This document shows, piece after piece, positions 4,502 through 59,180 of a DNA stretch of 64,000 nt. The position numbers and the translations under genes are program-made. Numbering within the stretch: the stretch's first letter is position 1; every line of letters begins with the position of its first letter. The stretch is from Candidatus Aminicenantes bacterium (GTDB taxonomy: Bacteria > Acidobacteriota > Aminicenantia > Aminicenantales > Aminicenantaceae): the NCBI GenBank assembly GCA_030603565.1, contig JAUVXM010000007.1:176-64175 (forward strand), read 5' to 3'. The notes beneath the pieces are model-generated. The model did no database searches, was not told the DNA's origin, and worked only from the letters and a program-made list of their open reading frames with translations.

Positions 4502-4697
4502 CCTGAACTATTCATAAAAATTGCAAATGATGTACTCAAAAAAAAACAATAACTAATTTTATCATTGGCACTTTTTACCTTTCAGGCGAGCCGATTTTAC
4601 CGCATCTGCTTTGTTGCAGCGGATTCGCGGTGAAATACCACAGCTTCATCCTCTGCGCCTCACATCTACGGCAACCTCGACTCGTGAATAATCCAGG
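4502..4697 (+). repeat. MITE-like composite repeat copy 1: degenerate left TIR (CCTGAACTATTCATAAAAA) followed by an A-core structured module (4571-4697) ending GTGAATAATCCAGG
   Basis: The sequence recurs at 6686-6804, 16361-16493(-), 17750-17873 and 58914-59047(-) with >85% identity by eye. Confidence 0.85.
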
Positions 4698-4824: not shown

Positions 4825-6690
4825 TTGCTGGAATTTATAAAAATTTACAGGGATGGAGTGGATTTAATGGAAAAAAAAGAAATTTTAGGACTTGTAGCAA
4901 AAAAACTGCGTATTCATGCTTTAAAAATGACTTCAAAAGCCGGCTCCGGTCATCCAACAACGTGTATGTCCATGGCGGAATTAGCAGCATGTTTATTTTT
5001 TGATGAGATGCAGTATAATATCAACGACCCTTTTGACTGGGCCAATGATGAACTGGTTCTTTCTAAAGGACATGCTGCCCCCATCCTCTGGGCTGCTTAT
5101 GCAGAAGCCGGGATAATTCCTATTGAAGATCTGATGAACTTGCGAAAAATTAATAGTCCGCTCGAGGGTCATCCCACTCCCCGTATGAAATGGATTAAAG
5201 CGGCCACAGGCTCGCTCGGACAGGGACTTTCCGTAGGAGTTGGAATGGCAGCTGCTCTGAAGCTGGCGAAGTCTCCCAGGAAAGTTTATGTTGTAATGGG
5301 AGACGGAGAGTGCGCTGAAGGTTCGGTTTGGGAAGCAGCCAACACTGCTTCTTATTTAAACCTGGACAATCTTTACGCCATAGTTGATATAAACCGCCTG
5401 GCCCAATCGGAAGCTACTATGCACGGGTTTGACCTTGCTGCCTATGAGAGAAAATTTAAGGCTTTCGGGTGGGAAGTTATCAAAATCGACGGGCATAAGG
5501 TTGCGGGTATACTCCAGGCTTTTACAGATGCACGCAAATCGAGAGGACCGACGGCTTTGCTGGCAAAAACCATTAAAGGCAAGGGAGTTAGTTTCCTTGA
5601 AGATAAAAACGGTTGGCATGGTAAACCGCTTAACCAAGAGGACCTGCAAAAAGCCTTGGATATGCTTGGTCCCATGCCGGATCTGGATGCAAAGCAATTT
5701 GTCCGTAAACCGGATAAAGTTAAAGGTCCCGGATTTTCAAAGGAATTTGATTTTAAAAAGAATATATATTCAAAAGACACTGCCACACGGCGGGCCTATG
5801 GGAACGCTTTAGTCAACCTGGGCAAAGCCGACATAAGGGTTGTTTCTATCGATGGAGATGTAAAGAACTCCACCTATGCGGAGGATTTTTTTAAAGCTTT
5901 TCCAAAGAGGTCTTTTCAGGGTTATATTGCCGAGCAGAACATGGTGGGAATGGGAATCGGGATGGCAGCTAAAGGATTTATTCCTTTTATGGCAACGTTT
6001 TCGGCATTTTTAGGTAGGGCACATGACCAGATAAGGATGGCGGCATATTCGAATTCAAACATTAAACTAGCTGGTTCTCATGCAGGTATCAGCATAGGTG
6101 CTGATGGTCCTTCTCAAATGGGGCTGGAAGACCTTGCTATTTTCACCCCGATTCCGGGATGTGCTGTGCTTTATCCATGTGATGCCTATTCCGCTGAAGC
6201 CTGTGTTGAGTCTATGGCTAGGTATAATGGCATGGCTTATATCCGGACTACTCGACCTGCAACTCCGCTGCTGTATGATAAAAAAGAAAAATTCTCTATT
6301 GGCGGCTCAAAAGTTTTAAAAGAAAGTAAAAAAGATGCAGTGACTGTAATTGCTGCCGGGATAACAGTATTTGAAGCTTTAAAGGCATATGAAGAACTTA
6401 AAGCAGAGGGTATTTTTATCCGTATCATAGATGCTTATTCAATTAATCCGCTGGATAAAGATAATATTATAAACCAGGTTGCTTCTGCCGGGAAAAAGGC
6501 AGTAGTAGTGGAAGACCATTACGCGGTAGGAGGTTTGGGAAGTGCAGTGGCGTCTGTTTTGGGAGGGAAAGCGGAATTTATCCATTTGGCTGTAAAAGAT
6601 CTTCCGCGTTCAGGGAAACCGGAAGAATTAATGGACAAATATGGGATATCTGCTTCTCATATTGTAGAGGCCGTGAAAAAACTAGCCTGA
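4825..6690 (+). CDS. tkt: Transketolase (single-chain, N-terminal TPP domain plus C-terminal Pyr/transketolase domains)
   Basis: GHPTTCMSMAELAACLF and GDGECAEGSVWEAAN TPP-binding motifs; C-terminal pyrimidine-binding and TK_C-like regions. The stop TGA lies inside the repeat TIR. Confidence 0.9.
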   Translation: MLEFIKIYRDGVDLMEKKEILGLVAKKLRIHALKMTSKAGSGHPTTCMSMAELAACLFFDEMQYNINDPFDWANDELVLSKGHAAPILWAAYAEAGIIPIEDLMNLRKINSPLEGHPTPRMKWIKAATGSLGQGLSVGVGMAAALKLAKSPRKVYVVMGDGECAEGSVWEAANTASYLNLDNLYAIVDINRLAQSEATMHGFDLAAYERKFKAFGWEVIKIDGHKVAGILQAFTDARKSRGPTALLAKTIKGKGVSFLEDKNGWHGKPLNQEDLQKALDMLGPMPDLDAKQFVRKPDKVKGPGFSKEFDFKKNIYSKDTATRRAYGNALVNLGKADIRVVSIDGDVKNSTYAEDFFKAFPKRSFQGYIAEQNMVGMGIGMAAKGFIPFMATFSAFLGRAHDQIRMAAYSNSNIKLAGSHAGISIGADGPSQMGLEDLAIFTPIPGCAVLYPCDAYSAEACVESMARYNGMAYIRTTRPATPLLYDKKEKFSIGGSKVLKESKKDAVTVIAAGITVFEALKAYEELKAEGIFIRIIDAYSINPLDKDNIINQVASAGKKAVVVEDHYAVGGLGSAVASVLGGKAEFIHLAVKDLPRSGKPEELMDKYGISASHIVEAVKKLA

Positions 6691-6804
6691 ACTATTCACG
6701 AGCCGATCTTACCGCATCTGTTGCAGCGGATTCGCGGTGAAGGACCACAGCTTCATCCCCTGCGCCTCGCATCTACGGCAACCTCGACTCGTGAATAGTT
6801 CAGG
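6686..6804 (+). repeat. MITE-like repeat copy 2 (left TIR fused directly to A-core; right end GTGAATAGTTCAGG)
   Basis: CCTGAACTATTCACGAGCCGATCTTACCGCATCTG...CTCGTGAATAGTTCAGG; TGA at 6688-6690 is the tkt stop codon. Confidence 0.85.
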
Positions 6805-6863
6805 CTGATAAAATTCCGTAAATAGAGAATTGCAGGAAAGCGGGGAATAAGGATTAGAGAAGA

Positions 6864-6950
6864 AAAGGCGGAAAATAGTAAATGGAAAAAACCGTGAAAT
6901 GTGAATCGTGAAACGTGGAATATGGGAAAAAACAGAAAATGGGAAATCCT
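6864..6950. repeat. Purine-rich 'GAAAATAGTAAATGGAAAA/CCGTGAAATGTGAA' repeat (family E) copy
   Basis: Near-identical strings occur at 11101-11285, 22010-22032, 23981-24009 and 35130-35215. Confidence 0.7.
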
Positions 6951-7674
6951 GTTTATTCTTTTTTTCCTGGTTTCTCTGACTGTTTCTCTTTCTGCTCAGG
7001 CTGAAGAGGGGGTTGTAACTGCCGTATATGATGGAGATACGATCAAAGTAAGATTTGATAAGGGAAACAGTGAAGTTGTCAGGCTTATCGGGATTAATTC
7101 TCCAGAGCTTACGGACTCTCGGGAGAAGGTGCGGTTTATAGCTTTTATGGCAAAGAGATTCTCCTATTCTATATTGTATGGACAAAAAGTAAAACTGTCT
7201 TACGATTGGGAGAAACGGGACAAATTCGGGCGCCTGCTTGCATATGTTTTTTATAACTCTAAGCTTTTTAATGAGTTTATTCTAAGCCGGGGATTTGCTT
7301 ATGTTTTTTTAAAGTACCCTTTCAGAGAAGATTACAGGCAGAGGTTTGTTACAGCTTACCGTAATGCAAGGAAAGCAGAAGCAGGCCTGTGGAAAAAACA
7401 GCCGTATCCTGTTATTGTGCCTGAAAAATGCAAGAATCATATCGGGGATTTGATGAGGGTAAGGTTTTTTTGTGCAGATATTCAGCAAAAGGGGAAATTG
7501 ATATTTCTAGGTGCTTTAGAACAGGGTTTTTCCGCAATCATTAACATAAGAGATAAACATCATTTTTCGGATATCCAGAATCTAAAAGGAAGAGTGATAA
7601 CAGTGACTGGGTTTGTTGAGGAATATAGAGGCAGCTTGCAGGTGGTTCTGTTTATGCCATCCCAAATAACCTGA
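6922..7674 (+). CDS. Secreted thermonuclease (staphylococcal nuclease/SNase-like) with C-terminal OB-fold-like domain
   Basis: SNase motifs VVTAVYDGDTIKVRF...VRLIGINSPE...FGRLLAYVF. Signal peptide MGKNRKWEILFILFFLVSLTVSLSAQA. The ORF-track start at 6901 lies inside repeat family E, so the start is more likely the Met at 6922. Confidence 0.8.
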   Translation: MGKNRKWEILFILFFLVSLTVSLSAQAEEGVVTAVYDGDTIKVRFDKGNSEVVRLIGINSPELTDSREKVRFIAFMAKRFSYSILYGQKVKLSYDWEKRDKFGRLLAYVFYNSKLFNEFILSRGFAYVFLKYPFREDYRQRFVTAYRNARKAEAGLWKKQPYPVIVPEKCKNHIGDLMRVRFFCADIQQKGKLIFLGALEQGFSAIINIRDKHHFSDIQNLKGRVITVTGFVEEYRGSLQVVLFMPSQIT

Positions 7675-7830
7675 AGTATTCATAAAAAAATGGCGATGTT
7701 TTTATTATTAATTTCTTTTCAGCGATATTCAAGATTTTTTCGAGAATGATTATTTTAACGATTTTCTCGTTTTCATTTTTAATTTTAATCGCCATTTTTT
7801 TACCTTACAGGCGAGCTGATCTTACTGCTT
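7669..7830 (+). repeat. MITE-like copy 3, variant/partial: TIR CCTGAAGTATTCATAAAAAAATGGCGAT, AT-rich inner part, ATCGCCATTTTTTACC plus truncated A-core
   Basis: Internal inverted repeat AAAAAATGGCGAT / ATCGCCATTTTTT. TGA at 7672-7674 is the nuclease stop. Confidence 0.7.
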
Positions 7831-7911
7831 TTAAGTTGAAATTGTTTGACATGGGGATTTGATAAACGTTAATATTTGTTAACCTGGCATGGGAATAATA
7901 TTTTGTGAGGT

Positions 7912-10900: not shown

Positions 10901-11103
10901 TGGCCCGAGTAGTAGCGAGCGCAGATGCCCGTCCCACAGATCAATCATATCAGGTTTTTAAGGAATTATCTTCTAAAGCTAGTGCCCAGATGGGTTTGTT
11001 GAGATTAATAATTAAACGTGATCTTCCTGAATTTAATAAACTTGTAAGAAAGGAAGATATCCCGGCGATTATACTTAACTTAGATACCGGAAATAGGAAA
11101 TAG
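7912..11103 (+). CDS. Secreted VPS10/sortilin-like BNR (Asp-box) repeat beta-propeller protein with Lys/Glu-rich coiled-coil C-terminal tail
   Basis: Signal peptide; recurrent S-x-D-x-G-x-T-W Asp-box motifs (STDAGKTWKHIG, SKDGGQTWEKV, SVDGGKTYSSI, TKNGGNSWQDI) and W..IGP..GGR.T motif characteristic of the Sortilin-Vps10/GH74-like fold. Confidence 0.8.
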   Translation: MFMKNKKLIPVFWVALIFLTAISSQGKQSSEKKAFKYNEDVYKAMQWRCIGPYRGGRATAVAGIPGEPYTYYFGSTGGGVWKTEDGGINWTPVSDGFFKTGSVGAIAVSEWDSNVVYVGMGEAPIRGNVSHGDGIYKSTDAGKTWKHIGLSNTSQISRIRIHPRNPDLIYVAALGHIYGPNKERGIFRSKDGGQTWEKVLFRSDKAGAIDLILAPNNPRIIFASIWEAGRTPYSLKSGGPGSGLFKSSDSGDSWVEISRNQGLPKGELGKIGITVSPAKIGRVWAIIEAKNGGVFRSDDEGETWTKVNEERRLRQRAWYYSRIYADPKSSETVYVLNTGLYRSVDGGKTYSSIRVPHGDNHDLWIAPDNPDRMINSNDGGANVTYNGGISWTEQDNQPTAQFYHVTTDERFPYWVYGAQQDNSTVRIASRTSGSGIDKTYWHAVGGGESGYIAPRTDNPDIVYAGSYGGLITRWDYKTRQSRIISPWPENPMGWGAGDLKYRFQWTFPILVSRFDPDVLYCAAQVLFKSYNEGQSWTVISHDLTTNDKSKQKKSGGPITFDDTSVEYYCTIFSLAESVFDPNILWVGTDDGLVHITKNGGNSWQDITPKQMPKWSLISMIDTSTFGAGRAFIAVDRHELDDFSPYIYKTDNFGMTWKKITNGLPENTFVRVVREDPERKGLLYAGTETGVFVSFDSGENWQSLQLNLPVVPVHDMVVKEDDLVIATHGRSFWILDDLSPLQQLTQEVLGSDIFLFRPISAYRMGGRSYPRTNIGQNPPSGSVIYYYLKETLDEEVTLEFSDMKGDLIKRFSSQKKRDNDDPNSQRSFRRKGSGEIVSTDKGMNRFTWNMRYPDAVEVPGAVMWGGMLSGPIAVPGQYQVKLIVGDKSMTRTWEWRKDPRVRASQFDFLRQFDLLIKIRDEITEVNKSINRLRNIKDQIRELLKKIKVEEKTKEIITAGETLLKKLTEIEDMLIQSKSKSGQDPLNYPILLDNKIAALARVVASADARPTDQSYQVFKELSSKASAQMGLLRLIIKRDLPEFNKLVRKEDIPAIILNLDTGNRK

Positions 11104-11285
11104 AAAATAGTAAATAGTAAATAGAAAAACCGTGAAAAGTGAAATGGGAAATGTAAGGAAAAGCAGTAAATAGTAAATGGAAAATGGGATGAAAAGGCGG
11201 AAAATGGAAAATAGAAAATGGGGGAGAAGAAGTGAATCGTAAAACGCAAAATCTGAAAAAAACAGGAAAAACAGGCAGGAAGTCA
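11101..11285. repeat. Family E purine-rich repeat array (tandem degenerate AAATAGTAAATGGAAAATGG units)
   Basis: Direct reading; it overlaps the VPS10-like stop and the mis-called start of the next ORF. Confidence 0.7.
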
Positions 11286-13036: not shown

Positions 13037-16000
13037 ATGGATATACGCCGGTTAACAGCAATTTGCCTGGCGGTTGTATTTTTTTTAGCTCTTGGAATTC
13101 AGCCTGTATATTCAGAGTTACTAACAAAACAAAGAGATTCACAAGAGCCTGAAATATCTTCAGATTTGTTTAAACATCTCTTATGGAGGAATATCGGTCC
13201 GGCAAATATGATGGGCAGGGTTAGTGATGTTGAAGGAGTTCCGGGAAAACCCAATCTTGTTTATGTCGGCTCCGCCAGTGGCGGAATCTGGAAAACAATT
13301 AATAACGGAATAACATGGACGCCGATTTTTGATAAACAATCTGTTGCTTCTATTGGGGATATAGCCTTAGAACCGGGTAATCCGGATGTTATCTATGCCG
13401 GAACCGGAGAGTCCAATGTACGTAACAGTGTGTCTTTCGGAAATGGCATTTATAAATCGACTGATGGAGGCAAGACCTGGGTTCACCTGGGGCTTAAGGA
13501 TACCAGGCATATTTCCCGAATTGTCATAAACCCAAAGAATCCCAAAATCGTTTATGTCGGAGCTCTAGGGCATGCTTACGGATCTAATCCGGCCCGTGGT
13601 GTCTATATGAGTTCGGATAGAGGAAAAAATTGGCAGAGGGTTCTCTATATTGATGACCGCCATGGAGTTGCGGATATGGATATAAATCCTCAAAACCCCA
13701 ATATTGTATATGCAGCCATGTGGCGTTTTGAGCGGAAGCCCTGGACATTTACCAGCGGGGATACAGAAGGGGGTTTATATAAATCTGTTGATAGTGGATC
13801 TACCTGGATTAAACTTTCTAATGGTCTGCCTAAACTTGTCGGACGTATGGGCGTCAAGGTTGCTCCCAGCAATCCGGATATTGTCTATGTTATGACGGAA
13901 GCAAAAAATGGGACTCTCTATAAATCTTACGATGAAGGTGAGTCTTTTCAGGTGGTTTCAAAAAATGTTAAAATCGTTTCAAGGGGTTTTTATTACACTG
14001 ACCTGAGAATCGATCCGAAAGATGAAAACCGGGTTTATGCTGTATCTTCTGGTCTTTATCTCTCTATAGATGGAGGAGAGGAATTTAAACGTATTTCTTC
14101 TTCTACTCATTGCGGCTATCATTCTCTCTGGATCGACCCTTTAAATCCAAAACGGATCTGGCAAGGGCAAGATGGAGGTATCTGTGTATCATATGACAGG
14201 GGAAAGGCCTGGGATTATGTGAATAATTTTCCCATATGCCAATTTTATCAAATCTATGCGGATAATAGAGAGCCTTTTTATTATGTAGGGGGCGGCCTTC
14301 AGGATAATGGTACCTGGTATGGTCCCAGCACCAGTCGGGAGCCCTATGGAATCATGAATGAGGATTGGCGTATGATCAGTTTTGGGGATGGGTTCCATAT
14401 TATTGTCCATCCGGATGACCATGAGTTGTTTATCAGTGAATCGCAAGCAGGCGGTATCGTCAGAACAAACATGAGAACACGAGAGCAGCAGGATGTCAGC
14501 CCCCAGCCGCGGAGAGCGGATGGAGCGCCGGTTTCTAGCTTAAAATACAGATTTAACTGGAATACTCCAATTATTCTTTCTCCGCATGACAAGAATACAG
14601 TCTATGTAGGAGCAAATGTCGTATTTAAATCCACTGATTTTGGAGACACTTGGAAAATTATCAGTAAAGATTTGACGACAAACGAGCCGGAAAAACAAAA
14701 AGTGGCCGGCGGACCTCCATGGCCGGAAAATACGACAGCTGAGTACTATTGTACCATAATAAGCCTGGCTGAATCCCCGGCCCAGCCGGGAGTTCTATGG
14801 GCCGGAACTGATGACGGAAAGCTTCATGTTTCTATGGACGGGGGGGAAGTCTGGAAAAGTGTAGTTAACAGTATTCCGGACCTTCCTTCTGACTCGCCCG
14901 TATCCCATGTTGAACCATCCCATACTTCAGCGGGAATGGCTTATATTTCTTTTGACCGCCATATGTTAGATGATTTCAAGCCTTATGTATTTAGAACTGC
15001 GGATTTTGGAAGGACCTGGATCAATATAACAGGTAACCTTCCGGAAAATGCATATGTGTGGGTGCTCAGGGAAGACCCGAAAAATTCCCGGATTATATAT
15101 GCCGGTACTGAATTAGGGATTTTTGTCTCCTTTTCCAGGGGAGATAAATGGGTAAAACTTAATTTGGGTAACCTGCCGGTAGTAGCAGTACATGATATTC
15201 TTGTACATCCGAGAGATAATGACCTTATCCTGGGGACTCACGGAAGAGGCATCTGGATTCTTGATAGTATTTCTTTGTTACAGGAGATCTCTCCTGAATT
15301 ATTAAAGCAGGAAGCTTATATTTTTACAATAAGGCCGGCTTTGCGCTATGTATCAAAACCCACAAGATACGGGATCGGCGACCGGGTTTTCCGCGGAGAA
15401 AACCCCGATTATGGTGCTTTAATAACTTATTATCTCAAACAGAAGCCCGAAAAAAAATCTAAAGTAAAACTGGAGATCATGAATGAATCAAGGGAAGTCA
15501 TCCGTGCTATTGATGACATACCAAGTGAAGCGGGTCTTAACCGTACGTCTTGGGATTTACGTTACGAGGGGCCATGGAGCAGTAAAAAAGATGAGATAGA
15601 GGAAGATTTTTTCTTTGGCGGACCTCAGGGTCCCCAGGTTTTACCAGGTACATATACAATTCGTATTTCTATTGGAGAAAGATCGTTTGAAAAGCCACTG
15701 AGAGTAAGGATGGACCCGGCCGTTGAAACTGCTCCAGAAGATATTGCGATGCAGCTTGAATATACTTATAAACTGAGAGATTGGCAGTCCACCTTGAACC
15801 GGGGGATCAGTGCCCTGGACACTCTTGAAGCCCAGCTAAAAGAACGGAAAAAAACACTTGAAAACTCAGCAGTCGAATTCCCGGAGGAAGTAAGGAATGC
15901 TATAGAAAGTAACTTAAAAAAAATATCCGGCATCCGGGATATCCTTATTCGTCCTGAAGGAAAGCCGTTTTGGAGTGAAGGGCCGCGGCTGTTGGGAAGG

Positions 16001-16264
16001 ATTCGCAGCCTTTTCCGTAATATCGAGGGAGTAAATGCTATTCCGACGAGGGCTCAAGTGATTTATCTTAATGAATTAAAGAAAGAATTCGAAACAGCGG
16101 TCGCATCTATAAACAATTTCTTAAGTGATTCAGTAAAGGAACTGAATGACTTATTTTCTCAGAAAAAGACTCCCTTGTTGCTTGTACCTAGACTTATTAA
16201 AAATGATGGAAGCTTGAAAAAGTTGCAGGAAAGGCAGGAAAACCAGGAACACGAGAAAAAGTAG
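13037..16264 (+). CDS. Second secreted VPS10/sortilin-like BNR repeat beta-propeller protein (paralog of 7912-11103) with coiled-coil C-terminal tail
   Basis: Same motif set (WRNIGP..MGRVSDV, STDGGKTWVHLG, SVDSGSTWIKL, SMDGGEVWKSV); alignable end-to-end with the first copy by eye at roughly 35-45% identity. Confidence 0.8.
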   Translation: MDIRRLTAICLAVVFFLALGIQPVYSELLTKQRDSQEPEISSDLFKHLLWRNIGPANMMGRVSDVEGVPGKPNLVYVGSASGGIWKTINNGITWTPIFDKQSVASIGDIALEPGNPDVIYAGTGESNVRNSVSFGNGIYKSTDGGKTWVHLGLKDTRHISRIVINPKNPKIVYVGALGHAYGSNPARGVYMSSDRGKNWQRVLYIDDRHGVADMDINPQNPNIVYAAMWRFERKPWTFTSGDTEGGLYKSVDSGSTWIKLSNGLPKLVGRMGVKVAPSNPDIVYVMTEAKNGTLYKSYDEGESFQVVSKNVKIVSRGFYYTDLRIDPKDENRVYAVSSGLYLSIDGGEEFKRISSSTHCGYHSLWIDPLNPKRIWQGQDGGICVSYDRGKAWDYVNNFPICQFYQIYADNREPFYYVGGGLQDNGTWYGPSTSREPYGIMNEDWRMISFGDGFHIIVHPDDHELFISESQAGGIVRTNMRTREQQDVSPQPRRADGAPVSSLKYRFNWNTPIILSPHDKNTVYVGANVVFKSTDFGDTWKIISKDLTTNEPEKQKVAGGPPWPENTTAEYYCTIISLAESPAQPGVLWAGTDDGKLHVSMDGGEVWKSVVNSIPDLPSDSPVSHVEPSHTSAGMAYISFDRHMLDDFKPYVFRTADFGRTWINITGNLPENAYVWVLREDPKNSRIIYAGTELGIFVSFSRGDKWVKLNLGNLPVVAVHDILVHPRDNDLILGTHGRGIWILDSISLLQEISPELLKQEAYIFTIRPALRYVSKPTRYGIGDRVFRGENPDYGALITYYLKQKPEKKSKVKLEIMNESREVIRAIDDIPSEAGLNRTSWDLRYEGPWSSKKDEIEEDFFFGGPQGPQVLPGTYTIRISIGERSFEKPLRVRMDPAVETAPEDIAMQLEYTYKLRDWQSTLNRGISALDTLEAQLKERKKTLENSAVEFPEEVRNAIESNLKKISGIRDILIRPEGKPFWSEGPRLLGRIRSLFRNIEGVNAIPTRAQVIYLNELKKEFETAVASINNFLSDSVKELNDLFSQKKTPLLLVPRLIKNDGSLKKLQERQENQEHEKK

Positions 16265-16329
16265 AATTAAAATTCTAAGTTATTTGAATGAAACAATTTA
16301 CAATTTGCATTTTACTTTATATTATATAT

Positions 16330-16611
16330 ATCGACATTTCTTATGAATAGTCCAGAATAACCTGGATTATTCACGAGATAAGCTTGCCGTAGATACGAGG
16401 CACAGGGTATGAAGCTGTGGACTCCACTGCGAATAGCCTGTAACGAAGTAGATGCGGTAAGATCATCTCGCCTGAAAGGTAAGAAATGTCGATTATTAGT
16501 AAAGATTATATCGAAAACGAAATGATTAATTATCTATCGGCAGTAATCAATATAAAATATTGGCATAAAAGAACTATTAAACATATCGACATTTCTTATG
16601 AATAGTCCAGG
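16330..16611. repeat. Composite repeat block: right-TIR (16330-16355), A-core in minus orientation (16361-16493), AT-rich conserved spacer, right-TIR (16585-16611) abutting the RBS of the downstream gene
   Basis: ATCGACATTTCTTATGAATAGTCCAGG occurs twice. The spacer TTATATCGAAAACGAAATGATTAATT is also present at 59060-59090. Confidence 0.85.
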
Positions 16612-16626
16612 TTAAAGGAGAATAAC

Positions 16627-17616: not shown

Positions 17617-17621
17617 AATAT

Positions 17622-17949
17622 CCTGAATCATTCATAAAAAATGTCGATATGAATGACATCTCTTTTAAATCAATACTTTACACTGATTCCTAAGACATAA
17701 CAATTGACCATTTTGTTTTTGTTGTAATTTATATTTGTAATCGACATTTTTTACTCTACGAGCGAGCCGATCTCTCCGCATCTGCTTCGTTACAGCGGAT
17801 TCGCGGTGAAATACCACAGCTTCATCCCCTGCGCCTCGCATCTGCAGCAACCTCGACTCGTGAATAATCCAGGTTAATAAAAATCTGAAGCGAGCTCAAG
17901 TCACACCTGAATTTCATCCACACCGCCATTTTTTTATGAATAGTTCAGG
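17622..17949. repeat. Fully repeat-filled convergent intergenic region: left TIR (17622-17648), spacer, A-core (17750-17873, +), family C module (17878-17917), right TIR (17924-17949)
   Basis: The TIR starts 5 nt after the upstream gene's stop, and the last TIR ends exactly at the stop codon of the convergent M14 gene (TAA at 17950-17952 on the minus strand). Confidence 0.85.
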
Positions 17950-20556
17950 TTATTCTGTTTCAGGATATAATAATGCGTTCAGCAGGAATTTGTAAGTTCC
18001 GTGTGACTGGGCGCGGTGCTGGCAACGGAATCCGATTAAGATAATATGACCTTGCTTGTGTTTCAGGTCAACCACAGCTGCTTTTCTGGCAATGGTATCT
18101 TCTCCTAAAAGCCAGCCACTAAGTAACACATCTTTTTCCGGATAGCTGGCAACTACAGTTCTGTCCCATTCTCCGGAAGGAATTCTGGTTCTGATCGCGA
18201 GGCTGCGGGAGAACATGGCAGCTGCTTCTGAAGGCAGGCCGTATCCGATGGGAGACCGTTTATTCACTTTAATTTTTAAGAGTGATGTCGGGCATAGGAA
18301 TTTACTTCTATCAACATTTTCTAAGGCATTACTGGCGGGAGATTTAAATTCTTTAAAGACAAGGTTGCAGGCATCATTTAAAGTAACAAGGATACCGCCT
18401 TCAGCGACAAATTTCTTAAGCGCCTCAACACCTTCCTTACCTATGCCTCCGGAATATTCCGGGGGGCCTTCGCTATAGTAGCGGGCATAACGGGAACCCG
18501 GGCTTGGTTTTCCTAATTTAATAATATCTGCGCTTTCACTGGCAAAAACAATAACGTCATATTTTGAATTGAAATCCACCTTCTTTTTCTTTGTGCCTTT
18601 GAAGTCTTTATTGTGAAGGGTAGTAAAGGGGATTTCCAGGTCGTCCAGAACATAGCGGGTCCAACCTTCGTCCATGTTTGACTTCCATGACTGGTAAAGA
18701 CCTACCCGGTGTTTTTTCAAGGGACTTTTCTTAATCTCAGAGATGTCATCAAGACCATAAGCATTAAGGTGCCATTTTTCCTGAAGAGCAGGCAGAGCTT
18801 TCTGGACTTGGGGGGTGTTTTCAACAATAAAACTACCAAAACAGGCGTGAAAATCATCTCTGCTAATTCCTGAATTGGAGCGATAGATCTCCGGCTTATA
18901 CTTCAGGAGAGAAAATACGGCACTGTAGGCTGCATTTTTTTTGGAATCCAGGACTATATATTTTGAGGAGGTTTCAGGCGCTGCAGTCTCGGGATAGGGG
19001 ATGCTTTCCAGTTTTTCAAGGTCTGCCTTAAAAGAACGGTCGATCTGAGCTGAGGCCACTCCCATCTGAAGAGGTAGGGTCCATCCGGCGTTATCATAGG
19101 GGGGGATAGGAGGGCCGCCAGGGTATTGACGCATATCAGGGTAGACCTGTTTTTCGAGCAGTGCCTGCGCATAAGGCCGGTAAGGTTGAGACATAAGAAC
19201 GACAAAAGAACCGGCAGGGTAGACTTTGCCGTCTGCCGTAAATTCATTTTTTGCTTGATGTATTTCCACTCCTCCGAGTTTCAGTATCTCCAGCATGCGC
19301 AGAGTTGTGGGATAGTCGCGCTGGTTTTTGGTGATAACAAAAGCATATGGCTGCCCTTCTTTTTGAATTTCAATAGCATCTTTACACATTTTATAGAAGT
19401 TAAAAAGCAGGTCTTCCTTGTGCATGTATGCGGTTTTGATAAGGCTCATGGAAAGAGTAAGTTCATAATCGACTATGTCTCTGAGGCGCCACCAGCCACC
19501 GGGCCAGGGATCAGGAAACTGCATTCTTTTTTCCGTATAAGACTTTGGTATCTCGGTAGGGTCGATGTAAATAGGAGAAGCGATTTTTACGGATGCCATT
19601 TCACTGAGTATGCCGATACAATTGTGCAGCCAGGAGGTGTCATCACAGGCGCCGATCCACCAACCAGTAAAGCTGCGGCCGTGTACTACTCCTTTGAAAT
19701 CATTTTTCTGAAGGTCATAAGACATATTCATGCCGCATAGAGCCACTCCGCGCCATATAAGTGGGTGTATTGTGGGTACAGGAGGGTTCATGAAAGGAGG
19801 AATAAATAGTCTTGCCCCGGTAGAGCCCATCTGATGTTCATCGATATGGATCTGAGGGATCCAGTCATGATAAAGCACTTTAGTTATAGCCTGTGTTTCA
19901 AGGAGGTTGAACATGAACCAGTCCCGATTATCATCGTGCCCGGCATAATGGTGATAAAGCCAGGGCATACTGCCGCCTTCATATTTGGTGCCGACATATT
20001 TTCTATACCACTCAGTCACCATCTGTTCGCCGTCCGGGTTAGTACTCGGGGAGAGCAGGACGATAACATCGTTTAAGACTTTATCTGTGTCATAGGGAGT
20101 TTTCCCTGTTACCAGATTGTAAGCAAGCTCCATAGCCATTTGGGAGGATGCGATCTCAGTGGAATGGAGGTTGCAGGTGAGAAGGACAATTGCTTTTCCT
20201 TGTTTTGCAAGCTTGCGAGCGTCATCCGGGGTTAAACCGCTGGCATCTCGCAGCTTCCGGGTTATTCCTTTAAAAGTATCCAGCTGGTCCATATTCTCTT
20301 TGCTTGTGATAACAGCTAAAAGCATGGATTTACCCAGGGTAGTCTTGCCGATATTTAAAAGCTTGATTTTTTCTGATTCTTCATCAAGTTTTTTAAAATA
20401 CGCCGTAATCTGGCTGTAGTCTGCCAGTTTATAGTCAGCTCCTACCTTATGCCCCAGAAAATCTTCCGGGGAAGTCTGGGCTGTTATAATTGCAGGTAGA
20501 ATAAGGAATATGATTGATAAAGATAAGGTCAGTTTTTTTAACATAAATCCCTCCAA
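17950..20556 (-). CDS. Secreted M14-family zinc carboxypeptidase-like protein (long form with C-terminal class-I glutamine-amidotransferase-like domain)
   Basis: Signal peptide; M14 signatures NLHSTEIAS (HxxE), NPDGEQ, HDDNRDWF (DxNRxF/W), and a second zinc His region; about 870 aa. Confidence 0.75.
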   Translation of the reverse strand: MEGFMLKKLTLSLSIIFLILPAIITAQTSPEDFLGHKVGADYKLADYSQITAYFKKLDEESEKIKLLNIGKTTLGKSMLLAVITSKENMDQLDTFKGITRKLRDASGLTPDDARKLAKQGKAIVLLTCNLHSTEIASSQMAMELAYNLVTGKTPYDTDKVLNDVIVLLSPSTNPDGEQMVTEWYRKYVGTKYEGGSMPWLYHHYAGHDDNRDWFMFNLLETQAITKVLYHDWIPQIHIDEHQMGSTGARLFIPPFMNPPVPTIHPLIWRGVALCGMNMSYDLQKNDFKGVVHGRSFTGWWIGACDDTSWLHNCIGILSEMASVKIASPIYIDPTEIPKSYTEKRMQFPDPWPGGWWRLRDIVDYELTLSMSLIKTAYMHKEDLLFNFYKMCKDAIEIQKEGQPYAFVITKNQRDYPTTLRMLEILKLGGVEIHQAKNEFTADGKVYPAGSFVVLMSQPYRPYAQALLEKQVYPDMRQYPGGPPIPPYDNAGWTLPLQMGVASAQIDRSFKADLEKLESIPYPETAAPETSSKYIVLDSKKNAAYSAVFSLLKYKPEIYRSNSGISRDDFHACFGSFIVENTPQVQKALPALQEKWHLNAYGLDDISEIKKSPLKKHRVGLYQSWKSNMDEGWTRYVLDDLEIPFTTLHNKDFKGTKKKKVDFNSKYDVIVFASESADIIKLGKPSPGSRYARYYSEGPPEYSGGIGKEGVEALKKFVAEGGILVTLNDACNLVFKEFKSPASNALENVDRSKFLCPTSLLKIKVNKRSPIGYGLPSEAAAMFSRSLAIRTRIPSGEWDRTVVASYPEKDVLLSGWLLGEDTIARKAAVVDLKHKQGHIILIGFRCQHRAQSHGTYKFLLNALLYPETE

Positions 20557-20605
20557 ATTAAGGATGTAACTTTTTTATCACTTCTATTTTACCCTGTCAA
20601 GCTAA

Positions 20606-20665
20606 AAGCAGGAAAACCAGAAAAACCAGGAAAAGCAGGAACTACAGGAAAGGCAGGCAAAACAG
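20606..20665. repeat. Degenerate tandem CAGGAAA(A)-type purine-rich repeats (family F)
   Basis: GCAGGAAAACCAGAAAAACCAGGAAAAGCAGGAACTACAGGAAAGGCAGGCAAAACAGG. Similar strings occur at 11255-11290, 16225-16262 and 58480-58510. Confidence 0.6.
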
Positions 20666-20764
20666 GTTTTTCTACAGTTACTGGTTTTACTGTAGTTTCT
20701 GTTTTTTAACTGCTTTTTATTATTGACAAAAATAGGATATAAAGTTAGGCTTTTATGAAGCATA

Positions 20765-21601
20765 ATGAAAAGTAGAAAATATAAAAAAATTGTAATATCA
20801 GCAGCATGTCTGCTTTTTCTTTTAAATATGACGTTTGCCAACCAGGTGGAGAATGAGACTGATATACCAAGTATTGTAAAAAAACAGAAGTCCGGAAAAT
20901 TTGAAATTGGGTTCCATTCCTCCCTGTGGACAGTGGATATTATCAAGAGTTATTTTGAGAGTGCCGTTAGTAATAAAATGGGTGAAGAAATCGCGAATGA
21001 AATGTACAAAGAGATTAAGGAAACTCATGCAGACCTAAATCGATCTGACTATGAAGAAGATCTTCTTTTTGACAGTGGTGGTTACAATTACGGCCTGGAA
21101 TTAAGATATTATCCAAAGGGAAGAGACGGTGCTTTCAGCCTGGGACTTTCCTTTGATAAAGCCAGAATGCGGTTTACTATAGAAGGCCCTGTAAGACAGA
21201 ATTTCTCAAACGGGACTTATGCCTCAGTGGATTCCTTCACTGAAATAACCCTGAATCCATTATTTACTAATTTGAGTTTGCGCTGGGATATGGTTCCGCA
21301 CTGGAGAGTTACTCCATTTATCATTCTGGGGATTGGAATTGCTGCCATGAACGGTGAATTCAATTATAATTACTCCGGGCTATATAAGTGGGGGGGATCA
21401 GATGAAAATATTAGTGATTCACAGCTGAAGACAATAAAAGAAGCGGAAGAAGATTGGGATGCGAATATTCCTAATATATTTCCCCTCATGCAGATAAATA
21501 TTGGTGTCAGGGCTAGGATAATTCCTAATCTGTATATTAAAGCGGAGACCGGTTTTTGGAATGGATTTATTCTTAGGGCTGGGATTTCGGGTCGGTTTTA
21601 A
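20765..21601 (+). CDS. Hypothetical secreted protein, probable outer-membrane beta-barrel (C-terminal ...GISGRF)
   Basis: Signal peptide MKSRKYKKIVISAACLLFLLNMTFA, Gly/Tyr/Asn-rich amphipathic strands, terminal Phe. Confidence 0.4.
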   Translation: MKSRKYKKIVISAACLLFLLNMTFANQVENETDIPSIVKKQKSGKFEIGFHSSLWTVDIIKSYFESAVSNKMGEEIANEMYKEIKETHADLNRSDYEEDLLFDSGGYNYGLELRYYPKGRDGAFSLGLSFDKARMRFTIEGPVRQNFSNGTYASVDSFTEITLNPLFTNLSLRWDMVPHWRVTPFIILGIGIAAMNGEFNYNYSGLYKWGGSDENISDSQLKTIKEAEEDWDANIPNIFPLMQINIGVRARIIPNLYIKAETGFWNGFILRAGISGRF

Positions 21602-21705: not shown

Positions 21706-21979
21706 GGACCGTGCTAGATGGGGAGTTAGCGGCATCCTGTAACTCACAATCCGCTATAGTGAGGTCGAATTCCCTGCCGAGGCTTGGTTTTTTCTGGTCT
21801 GTACCTTTGTAAGTAGTGTTGAAGGTGTGGGTCCTGTGCAAAGGATACTCTGTAAACCCCGTCAGGACCGGGAGGTAGCAGCGGTAGCAGAGATGTTCCT
21901 TGTGCTGCAGATCAACCTCACCTGAGCTAACTGCACTGGAAACGCAGGGGAGACTTAGTCAAAGCCGGGTGCACGGTCC
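21706..21979 (+). ncRNA. ffs: Signal recognition particle RNA, long form with Alu domain (scRNA/ffs)
   Basis: 5' GGACCGUGCUAGAUGGGGAGUUAGCGG...CAAUCCGCUAUAG...CGAAUUCCCU matches the Bacillus-type Alu domain. Helix 8 reads GUCAGGACCGGGAGGUAGCAGCGGUAGCAG (consensus GUCAGGUCCGGAAGGAAGCAGC). 3' ...GAGCUAACUGC...GGGUGCACGGUCC pairs with the 5' end. Confidence 0.88.
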
Positions 21980-22146
21980 TTAAAGATTCATTGCTACATT
22001 GTTTAAAACCTGAAAATAGTAAATGGAAAATGGCTCAGAATCGATCTGAGGAGGTCGCTTATTTATAAATGAATATTTTTGCCACCCTTCAGCTCATTAG
22101 GGACTATTGTTAAAACCCTAATATTATGCTTAGCAAAAAAATAGTG

Positions 22147-23955: not shown

Positions 23956-24064
23956 ATGAAAATAATATTATCATATAATTGAGAAATGTGAAATGTGAAA
24001 TGTGAAAGGAGTTCCTGTCACTATTTCCATTTGCTAAGTAAGGTTCCTATGATATAATCAGCTC

Positions 24065-25339
24065 ATGCTGGATGCAAAATATGTTCTGGAAAATCCCTCT
24101 CTTGTAATAAAAAAAACTGCTTTAAGGGGAATAGATATCGAGCTTAACGAGTTTCTGGGTCTTTCAGAAGAAAGAAAGGAATATCTGCAAAAAGTAGAGA
24201 GCCTTAGATTCAAATTAAACAAGTCTTCAAAACTTATCGGGCAGAAAAAAAAAGCAGGTGAGGATGCCGCGGTTCTTATAGGAGAGATGAAGAGCTTATC
24301 TGATGAGATAAAAAGAAAAGAAGAAAAGCTCAGAGAAGTGAATAAGAAGCTGAATAATATCCTCCTTTCTATCCCAAATCTTCCCCATAAGTCAGTTCCG
24401 GAGGGCTTAAACACAGAAAAGAATAAAGAAATCAGGCGATTTGGAAAGATGCCGGAATTTTCTTTCAAAGCAAAGCCTCACTGGGAAATCGGAGAATCCC
24501 TGGGGATATTGGATTTTAAACGGGCTGCAAAGATAACCGGTACTCGATTTGCTGTTTATCTTGGAGCCGGAGCAAGATTAGAGAGAGCTTTGATCAATTT
24601 TATGCTCGACATGCATACTAATGAGAAAGGATATAAGGAAGTTATTCCCCCCTTTATTGCTAATACTAATAGTCTTATCGGAACCGGAAACCTGCCGAAA
24701 TTTGAAGAAGACCTCTTTAAACTGAAGGATTATGATTGGTATATGATTCCCACAGCAGAAGTGCCTCTAACAAATTATTACCGGGATGAGATACTTGATG
24801 CCAAGATACTGCCTCAGAGATTTGTTGCATATACGCCTTGTTTTAGAAGTGAAGCGGGTTCATATGGAAAAGATATCCGCGGGCTTATCCGGCAGCACCA
24901 GTTTAATAAAGTCGAAATGATGAGTTTTGTTATGCCGGAAGATTCTTACTCGGAGCTTGAGTTCTTGACCAATGCTGCTGAAGAAGTCCTTAAAAGGCTT
25001 GGGCTGCATTACCGGGTTGTATCTCTATGCACCGGTGACCTAGGATTTGCAGGAGCTAAAACTTATGACCTTGAGCTCTGGATGCCTGACCGGAACGATT
25101 ATATTGAGATTTCCTCATGTACGAATTGTGAGGATTTTCAGGCCCGCCGGTCAAATATCCGTTTTAAGCGGGAAAAGAAGTCCAAGCCGGAGTTTGTGCA
25201 CACTCTAAATGGGTCTGGAGTAGCTTTAGGACGCACTGTAAGCGCCATACTAGAATGTTTTCAGCAGGAAGATGGATCAGTCCTTATTCCTGAAAAACTT
25301 CGCCCCTATATGGGAGATAAAAAGTTTATTAAGCCCTGA
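24065..25339 (+). CDS. serS: Seryl-tRNA synthetase
   Basis: N-terminal coiled-coil tRNA-binding arm, class II motifs ([26 protein letters not shown]; [10 protein letters not shown]). The stop TGA lies inside the repeat TIR CCTGAATTATTCACGAG. Confidence 0.95.
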
Positions 25340-25397
25340 ATTATTCACGAGGCGAGCTGAAATTCGGGTGTGGCTTGGGCTCGCTTCAGATTTTTAG
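25335..25397. repeat. Repeat fragment: TIR-like CCTGAATTATTCACGAG followed by inverted family C module (GCGAGCTGAAATTCGGGTGTGGCTTGGGCTCGCTTCAGATTTTT)
   Basis: Reverse complement of the AAAAATCTGAAGCGAGC.CAAGCCACACCTGAATTTCA module seen at 17878-17917 and 35379-35417. Confidence 0.7.
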
Positions 25398-25399
25398 CC

Positions 25400-25489
25400 G
25401 GAGGGATGGCCGAGTGGCTGAAGGCGGCGGTCTTGAAAATCGCTTCACGTGCAAGCGTGACGGGGGTTCGAATCCCTCTCCCTCCGCCA
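25400..25489 (+). tRNA. tRNA-Ser (anticodon TGA)
   Basis: Acceptor GGAGGGA/TCCCTCC, anticodon loop CTTGAAA, long variable arm, T arm GGGGG-TTCGAAT-CCCTC, CCA encoded. Confidence 0.9.
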
Positions 25490-25538: not shown

Positions 25539-25631
<93 letters not shown>

Positions 25632-33608: not shown

Positions 33609-33675
33609 TTTATGATATTTAGAAAATGGAAAATTAGGTTCTCTCAACTTTTTTTCAAACTTAAAAAAGTTATAA

Positions 33676-33833
33676 GGCATGGACACTGGTAAGTCCCTTC
33701 GAAAGACAGGGATTTCCCCCAGCTGGGAAATCCCTTCCTGTCCTCACAACGCTCTCCTCGAGATTCTCTCGAGGAACCATGCCCGCGTTGTTCCGGATGG
33801 CTTTCTCCGGGATTTACCAGTATCCATGCCAGC
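33676..33833. repeat. Family D hairpin element bounded by inverted repeats GGCATGGACACTGGTAA / TTACCAGTATCCATGCC
   Basis: Inner hairpins CAGGGATTTCCCCCAGCTGGGAAATCCC and CCTCGAGATTCTCTCGAGG followed by GAACCATGCCCGC. Paralog of 12761-12880; fragment at 58770-58815. Confidence 0.75.
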
Positions 33834-33839
33834 GCTTAG

Positions 33840-35091: not shown

Positions 35092-35100
35092 CTTAGGAGA

Positions 35101-35448
35101 CTTAATTATTCACGAGTCGAGGGTGCTGAATATGAGGAAAAGCGGAAAATAGTAAATGGTAAATGGGAAAAACCGTGAAATGTGAATTGTAAAATGTGAA
35201 ATGTTATGGTAAAAGATTTGTATCTTATGAAATTCTGATGTGGCTGAAGCGACATTGAAGATTTAGCCTTCTGATGAAGTTTTTCGAGGAAATCCGACGC
35301 AGTCGGACGCTGAGTATGTTTGACCCACGGACGGGGGGAGTTACGCAGGCGCCGAGAAAAACGAAGAAGAATGGCGTTAAAAATCTGAAGCGAGCGCAAG
35401 CCATACCTGAATTTCATTCATATCGACATTTTTTATGAATAGTTAAGG
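35101..35448. repeat. Composite intergenic repeat block: truncated A-core end (35101-35122, minus orientation), family E (35130-35215), family C (35379-35417), right TIR (35422-35448) abutting the gcvH RBS
   Basis: CTTAATTATTCACGAGTCGAGG; GGAAAATAGTAAATGGTAAATGGG...GTGAAATGTGAATTGTAAAATGTGAAATG; AAAAATCTGAAGCGAGCGCAAGCCATACCTGAATTTCAT; ATCGACATTTTTTATGAATAGTTAAGG. Confidence 0.8.
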
Positions 35449-35459
35449 AGGAGGTAAAT

Positions 35460-58604: not shown

Positions 58605-58769
58605 GAATAAGAAGTTGTTTTCTTTTGCCGATGAATCGTCAAAACAAAACAACTGTTTTTCAATTCGCTCCGCGAATACTGGAGGAATAGGAAATAATAT
58701 CTATAGGAAAGACGGGAAAATAAAAAATGGAGAATGGCAAATTGAGAAAGGATCGATACTGGTAAATCC

Positions 58770-59166
58770 CGGAGAAAGCCCTGTCTTTCGAAGGGACTTA
58801 CCAGTATCCACCCAACCCAGCTTCCCATTTGCACGAAGCAGAGCCACACCTGAATTTCATCACTTGTAATATAAGTAGTGAATGTCTATAGTGATAATGA
58901 AACTTAATATTAACCTGGATTATTCACGAGTCGAGGTTGCCGCAGATGCGAGGCGCAGGGGATGAAGCTGTGGTATTTCACCGCGAATGCGCTGCAACAA
59001 AGTAGATGTGGTAAGATCGTCTCGCTTGTAGAGTAAAAAATGTCGATTACAAATAAAAATTATATCGAAAACGAAATGGTCAATTGTTGTATCTTAGGAA
59101 TCAATGTAAAATATTGATTTAAAAAGAGGTATCGTACATATAGAAATTTTTTATGAATAGTTCAGG
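58770..59166. repeat. Composite repeat block upstream of ORF 59181: family D fragment, family C fragment (58835-58860), A-core in minus orientation (58914-59047), conserved AT-rich spacer, right TIR (59140-59166) abutting the RBS
   Basis: Near-identical in organisation to 16361-16611. Confidence 0.85.
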
Positions 59167-59180
59167 TTAGGAGAAATCGG

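Follow-up and report, generated by a model that had tools for sequence, protein, structure and literature searches.

The window analysed here is a 64,000-nt stretch of a Candidatus Aminicenantes contig (JAUVXM010000007.1), in which three genes are preceded by the same 27-nt repeat end (…TATGAATAGTYCAGG), stopping at 16611, 35448 and 59166, 0–4 nt 5' of the Shine-Dalgarno sequence (SD). The genes encode a DHODH-like protein (Pfam match to PF01180; start codon at 16627), GcvH (35460) and a DUF6599 protein (59181). Upstream of the first, the repeat end at 16585–16611 (+) reads ATCGACATTTCTTATGAATAGTCCAGG and is followed by TTAAAGGAG, AATAAC and ATG 16627; this right flank (16612–16626, +) holds TTAA at the position of the target duplication discussed below, the host SD AGGAG at 16616–16620 and the spacer. 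Upstream of gcvH, 35422–35448 (+) reads ATCGACATTTTTTATGAATAGTTAAGG (ending …TATGAATAGTTAAGG), then AGGAGG, TAAAT and ATG 35460. The right flank (35449–35459, +) is the right copy of AGGAG(G), which is the working gcvH SD, with the TAAAT spacer, and a left copy of AGGAG lies stranded at 35095–35099 (+), right after the gcvT stop codon. At the third site, 59140–59166 (+) reads ATATAGAAATTTTTTATGAATAGTTCAGG (ending …TATGAATAGTTCAGG) and precedes TTAGGAG, AAATCGG and ATG 59181; the right target-duplication copy TTAG, in the flank 59167–59180 (+), overlaps the host SD TTAGGAG, and the left copy, TTAA, is found at 58910–58913 (+).

A sequence-only reading of this DNA had claimed that the termini of an element run directly into the ribosome-binding site (RBS), as is indeed seen at all three sites. 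Its sequences for the interval between SD and ATG stand as written, although the spacer is 5 rather than 6 nt for gcvH and 7 rather than 8 nt at 59181. It had also described 17617–17949 as consisting wholly of repeat modules, correctly, this being the spacer between two convergent stop codons, and had taken the motif for an element terminus. The terminal motif TTATGAATAGTYCAGG has 20 matches in the window where 1.6 are expected (up to 3 mismatches; maximum of 6 in 100 shuffles), and bears out that assignment: the motif forms the right-hand terminal inverted repeat (TIR) in a family of MITEs (miniature transposable elements with inverted repeats). We refer to the end with the 27-nt motif as the AT-rich end and to the opposite end as the core end. 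In our judgement it is probable (roughly 0.8) that the motif is the right TIR of a non-autonomous DNA transposon (MITE) family spread in Candidatus Aminicenantes, and that its adjacency to RBSs stems from the insertion target.

Empty orthologous sites and target duplication

The same SD is found, equally far from the start codon, in orthologues that lack the element, and is therefore native at all three sites. For the 16627 gene, orthologous loci at 96% amino acid identity (L235/L236) read TTTAGGGAG-N6-ATG within a stop-to-start spacer of 24 nt, TAAATAATTTTGTTTAGGGAGAAAAATATG (reading TTTAGGGAGAAAAATATG before the start), against 362 nt in the window, and more distant orthologues (81, 66 and 61%) have an SD and lack the element, the 61% one (L019) reading AAGGAG-N6-ATG. 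For gcvH, the 91% orthologue (L110) reads TTAGGAGG-N5-ATG, with a gcvT–gcvH spacer of 14 nt, AACTTAGGAGGTAAATATG, a single AGGAG and no element. A locus with an identical GcvH protein (L109) reads AACTTATTAG, one intact element and AGGAGGTAAATATG, the spacer measuring 272 nt, while the same insertion together with further nested repeats gives spacers of 368 nt in the window and 511 nt in L107. Two 76% orthologues without the element (L111/L112) have a 28-nt spacer and CAGGAGG-N5-ATG. For the 59181 gene, the 86% orthologue (L062, with flanking proteins 86–87% identical) reads TTTAGGAG-N7-GTG; the element-free …GATAAAGATATCTAATTTTAGGAGAAATCGGGTG (also …TAATTTTAGGAGAAATCGGGTG) of that locus corresponds in the window to …GATAATGAAACTTAATATTAA, the 253-bp element and TTAGGAGAAATCGGATG. 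Every empty site has TTAG and then (G)GAG. The sequence-only reading had suggested that the elements may carry RBS-proximal sequence; that they bring the RBS along finds no support, given the SDs already present in L235/L236, L110, L111/L112 and L062, and the RBS is host sequence rather than element cargo. The gcvT–gcvH junctions of 14, 272, 368 and 511 nt among close strains indicate that the family is active, or was so recently.

The element flanks point to a duplicated target. Copies from Victivallales have perfect flanking repeats in four cases out of four (CTAA/CTAA, TTAG/TTAG, TTAG/TTAG and CTAA/CTAA), varying with the flank. Perfect 4-bp repeats flank 17 of 45 elements in the genome sample, as against 5.0 under shuffled pairing, and 14 of 51 in the metagenome sample, a figure without a shuffled control. 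The terminus is most often followed by TTAA, TTAG, CTAA, TTAT or CTAG, and the 4-bp duplications (TTAA, TTAG, CTAA, CTAG) conform to YTAR, so that the family shows the target duplication of a MITE. A TA duplication of the IS630/Tc1-like kind, suggested by the junctions TAA-CCTG…CAGG-TTA, was rejected because four bases co-vary between the flanks. Integron attC-like sites, considered for the G-TTA junction and the strand-specific fold, were likewise rejected, as the flanks are duplicated, both orientations occur and the neighbours are housekeeping operons. A 4-bp YTAR duplication (CTAA, TTAG, CTAG) is a hallmark of the IS5 group, and the duplication behaviour would suit a cut-and-paste element, presumably moved by an IS5-type DDE transposase.

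We propose that the elements insert at YTAR tetranucleotides (TTAA, TTAG, CTAA, CTAG) and duplicate them. With native spacers of 14–24 nt at two of the three sites, the YTAR available there would mostly be a stop codon (TAA/TAG) or the TTAG of a TTAGGAG SD. Insertions that survive would then be flush with a stop codon at one end or with an RBS at the other, and duplication of the target would rebuild the stop codon or the SD; at gcvH, the flanking AGGAG repeat would be the SD itself duplicated. On this proposal the ends abut RBSs because the YTAR hit by the element was part of a TTAGGAG-type SD, which the duplication then re-created next to the gene, and the meeting of repeat ends with RBSs and stop codons would be explained without new biology. 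Once inserted, the element would be transcribed within the host mRNA and fold as a three-way junction, leaving the SD single-stranded 3' of the TIR stem.

Gene boundaries are frequent neighbours of element termini. In the window, a stop codon is found within 8 nt of seven of the termini (4502, 6686, 7670, 17622, 17949, 25335 and 35100). Among 169 termini (the window and 103 genome loci), 31% have the start of a long open reading frame (ORF) within 40 nt downstream and 17% touch or overlap a stop codon. For a null drawn from YTAR sites of these loci, in intergenic regions free of elements, the figures are 11% near starts and 3.7% at stops; this null rests on rough gene calls made in this analysis. 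In three window ORFs the terminal TGA belongs to the TIR sequence CCTGAA: a transketolase-like ORF (4825–6690, TGA 6688–6690), an SNase-like ORF (6901–7674, TGA 7672–7674) and the ORF 24065–25339 (TGA 25337–25339). The insertions replaced the native C-terminal codons and stop in all three, and the pre-insertion frame of 4825–6690 would have been about six codons longer.

Several points weigh against this reading. First, gene boundaries are over-used 3–4-fold relative to other intergenic YTAR sites, for which target choice alone is no explanation; the excess could reflect target preference or survivorship. Second, that start codons are faced by the AT-rich end and not by the core end (19:2 and 12:2 in the two samples described below) does not follow from target choice alone. 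Third, the repeat flanking the gcvH copy is AGGAG, 5 bp long, and not a YTAR tetranucleotide. Fourth, the gcvH insertion is common to lineages 8% apart: at nucleotide level the empty L110 locus matches L109 and L107, both filled, at 98–99% identity but the window, also filled, at only 92%, so the empty site in L110 may be a precise loss and not the ancestral state, although the 76% relatives (L111/L112) still show the gcvH SD to be native. Lastly, no autonomous element with these TIRs was found in the approximately 1.5 Mb of fetched loci, complete genomes not having been searched for a transposase. Two sets of candidates for an autonomous insertion sequence (IS) were discarded: TIR pairs 1.4–1.5 kb apart in L008 and L083 enclose ilvE-like and mgtE host genes between two MITEs, and Victivallales copies with identical 40-nt interiors proved to be 161-bp MITEs.

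Architecture, copies and distribution of the family

Paired elements span 41–392 bp, with a mode of 251–257 bp, and fall into discrete size classes, namely a main form of about 253 bp and shorter forms of 41–160 bp with the same TIRs; some copies are bare hairpins of 41–85 bp. The main form runs from the left TIR CCTGGATTATTCA through a GC-rich hairpin core of about 100 nt, closed by CGAG…CTCG, to GTAAAAAATGTCGAT, an AT-rich stretch of about 90 nt, ATCGACATTTTTTA and the right TIR TGAATAGTTCAGG, with the AT-rich arm closed by AAAAAATGTCGAT and ATCGACATTTTTT. In coreless forms the TIR comprises the entire 27 nt (CCTGAACTATTCATAAAAAATGTCGAT). Over 13 positions and 51 copies, 566 of the 663 cells of the TIR pair CCTGGATTATTCA … TGAATAGTTCAGG are Watson–Crick and 60 are G·T. 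Terminal inverted repeats and a short size, under about 500 bp, without coding capacity are both features of a prokaryotic MITE. Three ORFs of at least 60 amino acids overlie copies in the window, a 61-aa TTG-initiated ORF (17665–17850, −) within the 17622–17873 copy, a 103-aa ORF (35106–35417, −) in the composite gcvT–gcvH repeat and a 158-aa ORF overlapping the 6686–6804 copy; none is kept between copies.

The copy before the DHODH-like gene is a full-length element of 251 bp (16361–16611, +), with its left TIR at 16361–16373, core hairpin, AT-rich arm and right TIR at 16585–16611. It is 80% identical over 268 nt, by self-comparison, to the 253-bp full-length element in the leader of the DUF6599 gene (58914–59166, +; right TIR 59140–59166). 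A partial second copy (16290–16356, +), comprising the right arm and TIR and ending in CCAGA, lies head-to-tail 4 nt upstream of the 16361 element. Such head-to-tail arrays, in which an AT-rich terminus is followed after 3–5 nt by the next core-end terminus, occur at 16344–16373 in the window and in L117, L133, L143, L160, L179, L220 and L227, and about 8 of 52 core ends are preceded by the AT-rich terminus of another element. The gcvT–gcvH spacer is filled by a composite element (35100–35448, +) with a variant left TIR ACTTAATTATTCA (35100–35112), a right TIR …TGAATAGTTAAGG (35422–35448) and an interior broken by other repeat modules.

A further full-length element (17622–17873, −) has its AT-rich, right-TIR end 5 nt past the stop codon of the 16627–17616 gene; it is 89% identical to the 58914 copy and is also carried by L235/L236. 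It is followed by a second module with the same TIR (17878–17949, +), whose terminus abuts the stop codon of the minus-strand gene 17950–20556. At 6686–6804 lies a short form of 119 bp, unassigned to a strand, consisting of TIR, core hairpin and TIR, and the TGA in its left TIR is the transketolase-like stop codon mentioned above. Partial copies were detected by self-comparison at 4502–4697 (−) and 7667–7838 (−).

Beyond the window, the TIR pattern occurs in more than 103 stretches of species-representative genomes, mostly metagenome-assembled genomes (MAGs) of Candidatus Aminicenantes, with a minority in MAGs labelled Eubacteriales, Acidobacteriota or Victivallales, and the core pattern occurs in more than 120 stretches of metagenome contigs. 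The window GcvH protein has its matches on metagenome contigs only. Many dispersed copies, present or absent among close relatives (96–99% identity), are again what a MITE family would show. No paper pairing Aminicenantes with MITEs or inverted repeats was found in the literature, and the family, very abundant in this uncultured lineage, is apparently undescribed. Many MAG contigs terminate inside elements (L051, L028, L100 and other short loci), with L051 ending 4 nt past a TIR, which suggests that the family probably fragments Aminicenantes assemblies. In annotating Aminicenantes MAGs, one should be prepared for spacers filled by MITEs, for contigs that break at these repeats and for ORFs whose ends come from a TIR.

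RNA structure, orientation and competing explanations

Folded as RNA, the 16361–16611 copy has a predicted energy of −93.5 kcal/mol (z = −9.1) and the 58914–59166 copy one of −79.8 kcal/mol (z = −5.6), the latter with its SD unpaired. The full-copy fold is a three-way junction with the TIR pair as its closing stem, a long hairpin made by the core, and an AT arm that AAAAAAUGUCGAU/AUCGACAUUUUUU close; in minimum free energy folds the SD is unpaired immediately 3' of the closing TIR stem. The core hairpin has compensatory changes at 19 of its 31 pairs among 34 distinct copies, and 96% of its cells are paired, compared with 88.6% in shuffles and about 30–41% when the partners are slid. The core is also asymmetric between strands, the forward strand having 125 G·U cells and 96% pairing and the reverse strand 11 and 85%, and in the TIR stem G·U outnumbers A·C by 60 to 5, all of these pairing figures being cell counts and not independent events, with several G·U positions common by descent. 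The inner half of the TIR co-varies as well (TGTCGAT/ATCGACA, TGGCGAT/ATCGCCA and TGCCGAT/ATCGGCA), which would be expected if both ends co-evolve with a transposase. A hammerhead-like CTGATGA…GAAA sequence in the gcvT–gcvH spacer was set aside for lack of Rfam support.

The elements are also oriented with respect to the genes that they adjoin. Among 51 non-redundant, core-ascertained metagenome elements with both ends, a start codon lies within 40 nt of the AT-rich end in 19 and of the core end in 2 (p = 2e-4), and a stop codon is abutted by the AT-rich end in 12 and by the core end in 4. The genome sample has the AT-rich end near a start in 12 cases and the core end in 2, and for copies with a perfect duplication the counts are 6 and 0. 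Near start codons, the best-folding strand is nearly always the sense strand of the adjoining downstream gene. The core-side gene shows no orientation bias (16 same, 15 opposite), on which ground we rejected replication- or transcription-linked insertion polarity as the source of the bias. The elements occur in both orientations of CTAA/TTAG, and a coupling of element to target orientation (TTAG versus CTAA; 6 versus 5 and 19 versus 11) was insufficient to account for it. Taken with the strand-specific core hairpin, the bias suggests that perhaps only sense-folding copies are tolerated or useful beside a start codon.

These observations bear on whether the element is a mobile cis-acting RNA module whose transcript has been selected for its effect on the carrier mRNA, the possible effects being stabilisation, a processing site, protein binding at the purine-rich internal loop, or coupling of stop and start at the foot of the TIR stem. 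The compensatory changes and near-complete pairing of the core, the G·U excess on the forward strand and in the TIR stem, the coincidence of that strand with the sense of the downstream gene in most start-proximal copies and the predicted folds that leave the SD unpaired 3' of the closing stem all favour such selection. The counts behind the pairing evidence are, however, not independent and the G·U positions are partly shared by descent, and the covariation could derive from a constraint on a parent IS (for example its leader) or from intrastrand repair of a palindrome. Moreover, Rfam 15 gave no match on the elements at the gathering score and chance-level matches only at E-values up to 10 (window and single copies), and the downstream genes are unrelated (RluB-like, LptE, RNase III, Fe-ADH, UvrD, M48 peptidase, response regulator, enolase and others), this functional disparity also making a pathway-specific riboswitch or regulator unlikely. 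Selection for a cis-acting transcript is, in our view, a tentative possibility.

The more specific idea of a mobile, generic post-transcriptional module, in which a conserved three-way-junction RNA is tolerated or selected in leaders and operon junctions and acts in cis, strikes us as doubtful. If true, a cis-acting RNA lying flush with the SD might protect the mRNA, recruit a protein to the purine-rich core loop or preserve translational coupling across a 250-nt insertion. An RNA-level role may nonetheless exist, as the orientation bias and the strand-specific covariation leave room for it; that covariation, together with an orientation bias of about 10:1, makes the family a testable case for selection on RNA added by bacterial MITEs.

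The sequence-only reading had suggested that the elements may act as portable expression or termination cassettes. For expression, an outward promoter would lie in the arm or the SD would come from the terminus, and the element would drive or enable expression of the adjoining gene, as Correia elements do in Neisseria. There is precedent in Correia elements and other MITEs, which carry sigma-70-like promoters (PMC10969869), and the orientation bias (19 versus 2, 12 versus 2 and 6 versus 0) would agree with it. However, a consensus scan found no excess of sigma-70-like promoter matches in the elements or window regions, Aminicenantes promoters being uncharacterised, and in the 125-nt arm beside the terminus of the 51 elements a match points outward in 8 and inward in 8, compared with 12.9 in shuffles. 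The arm sequence, moreover, varies between subfamilies except for the TIR, and the SD exists without the element at all three sites. The gcvH gene lies within the gcvT-H-P operon and would need no promoter of its own. At 59181, a consensus match to a promoter, TTGTAA-17-TATAGT (58864–58892, +), lies just upstream of the insertion point and is kept in the empty L062 locus, which indicates that the element sits in a pre-existing leader. The termination cassette finds no support either: a consensus scan gave no terminator-like hairpin with T-run in the elements, which sets them apart from SPRITE-like terminators, and the T-run ATCGACATTTTTT forms the 3' arm of a stem that encloses a loop of some 90 nt.

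In favour of a supplied SD is a set of about 14 termini outside the window with an ATG 3–11 nt downstream and no SD in the flank, the distances clustering at 5–9 nt, a spacing that would suit the terminal AGG(T) as a weak SD. These starts are credible, as Pfam domains align from residues 6–7. A weak SD may be provided in these copies by the terminal CAGG(T), or else the stop and start codons may be held together by the hairpin. At the mgtE–recO junction, the native state (L234) is a stop codon, 5 nt and an ATG without SD. In L083 (minus strand, about 4944–5007) a 59-bp hairpin element lies exactly between the mgtE stop and the recO ATG, the recO start being 4 nt from the terminus, and L233 retains a decayed element remnant at this junction. 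As recO natively has no SD, it never depended on one in the spacer. We hold a portable promoter or RBS cassette to be quite unlikely. Least probable by far are REP/BIME-like or IS200/IS605-derived palindromes moved single-stranded by a Y1 (RAYT/TnpA) enzyme: strand-specific hairpin conservation, mosaic clusters of modules in intergenic regions and head-to-tail arrays would fit such a route, but the elements have clear 13–27-nt TIRs, 4-bp flanking repeats that vary with the insertion site where Y1 elements make no duplication, insertions in both CTAA/TTAG orientations and, at the core-side gene (16 same, 15 opposite), none of the strand- or replication-linked bias expected of Y1 elements.

The closest known systems are Correia, ERIC and RUP-type MITEs (PMC10969869), together with IS5-type target duplication. 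Correia elements (CREE/NEMIS) of Neisseria are MITEs of 100–160 bp with TIRs, very often immediately upstream of genes and co-transcribed with them; their TIR stem forms in mRNA, and they can alter the expression of neighbouring genes (PMC10969869). Sigma-70 promoters have been demonstrated in them, along with an IHF site. The Aminicenantes elements resemble them as small MITEs with TIRs and a position upstream of genes. Correia elements duplicate TA, whereas the Aminicenantes elements have a 4-bp YTAR duplication, no excess of promoter-like matches and no sequence similarity to them, and belong to another phylum. With IS5-family MITE derivatives they share the 4-bp YTAR duplication, the size and a TIR layout of the deletion-derivative type; they differ in that the loci fetched yielded neither a cognate transposase nor a full-length IS ending in CCTGRAYTATTCA…, and in the 5-bp repeat of the gcvH copy. 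In enterobacteria and pneumococcus, ERIC/IRU, RUP, BOX and SPRITE repeats are co-transcribed with neighbouring genes, and the stable structures that they adopt as RNA can affect mRNA fate (PMC10969869, PMC3049150). These too are small intergenic repeats that cluster and nest, but their sequences and hosts differ; the Aminicenantes elements show compensatory hairpin changes across subfamilies and a marked orientation bias towards downstream genes. RAYT-mobilised REP/BIME sequences share mosaic intergenic modules and conserved hairpins with the Aminicenantes elements, although REPs are palindromes of 20–40 nt without TIRs or target duplications; the Aminicenantes elements have both, and are not short palindromes with a conserved 5' tetranucleotide.

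Other repeats and genes in the window

Several further repeats share the intergenic regions with the MITEs. A separate module of about 57 nt, TAAAAATCTGAAGCGAGCNCAAGYCAYACCTGAATTTCAT, occurs at 17878–17934, 35378–35434 and 25358–25396 (−); it is frequent in Aminicenantes loci (e.g. L005, L027 and L088) and in some copies stands in front of the 27-nt TIR. Another module, ATGAAATTCTGATGTGGCTGAAGCGACATTGAAGATTTAGCCTTCTGAT (35215–35280 in the window; also L107, L121, L136, L166, L167 and L195), repeatedly lies directly upstream of an element core end with the same junction, which suggests a favoured site of nested insertion. Purine-rich short repeats, GGAAAATAGTAAATGGAAAA and GTGAAATGTGAAATG, are found in the intergenic regions 6855–6921, 11094–11223, 21996–22035, 23960–24008, 35129–35202 and 58700–58739, one block being nested in the gcvT–gcvH element. 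A GC-rich repeat of about 170 nt (33660–33835), bounded by GGCATGGA…TCCATGCC and with internal inverted repeats GGGATTTCCCCCAGCTGGGAAATCCC and CTCGAGATTCTCTCGAG, occupies the divergent region upstream of gcvT; it recurs in part at 58752–58810 and in a related MAG (L062, 6830–6960), and may be another mobile or structured element.

Periodic repeats of 9 nt, AAAACCAGG/AAAAGCAGG, are present at 16221–16264 and 20604–20665. The former lie at the 3' end of a Sortilin/BNR-type ORF (13037–16264), and the upstream gene's 96% orthologue (L235) has a different C-terminus. The latter lie just upstream of the called start (20556) of a minus-strand carboxypeptidase-like gene, within a 114-aa minus-strand ORF (20602–20946). 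The window also encodes a bacterial large (Alu-domain) signal recognition particle RNA at 21709–21976 and three tRNA genes (2390–2462, 25400–25486 and 25539–25628), the first of the latter pair being abutted by an element remnant at 25335–25396.

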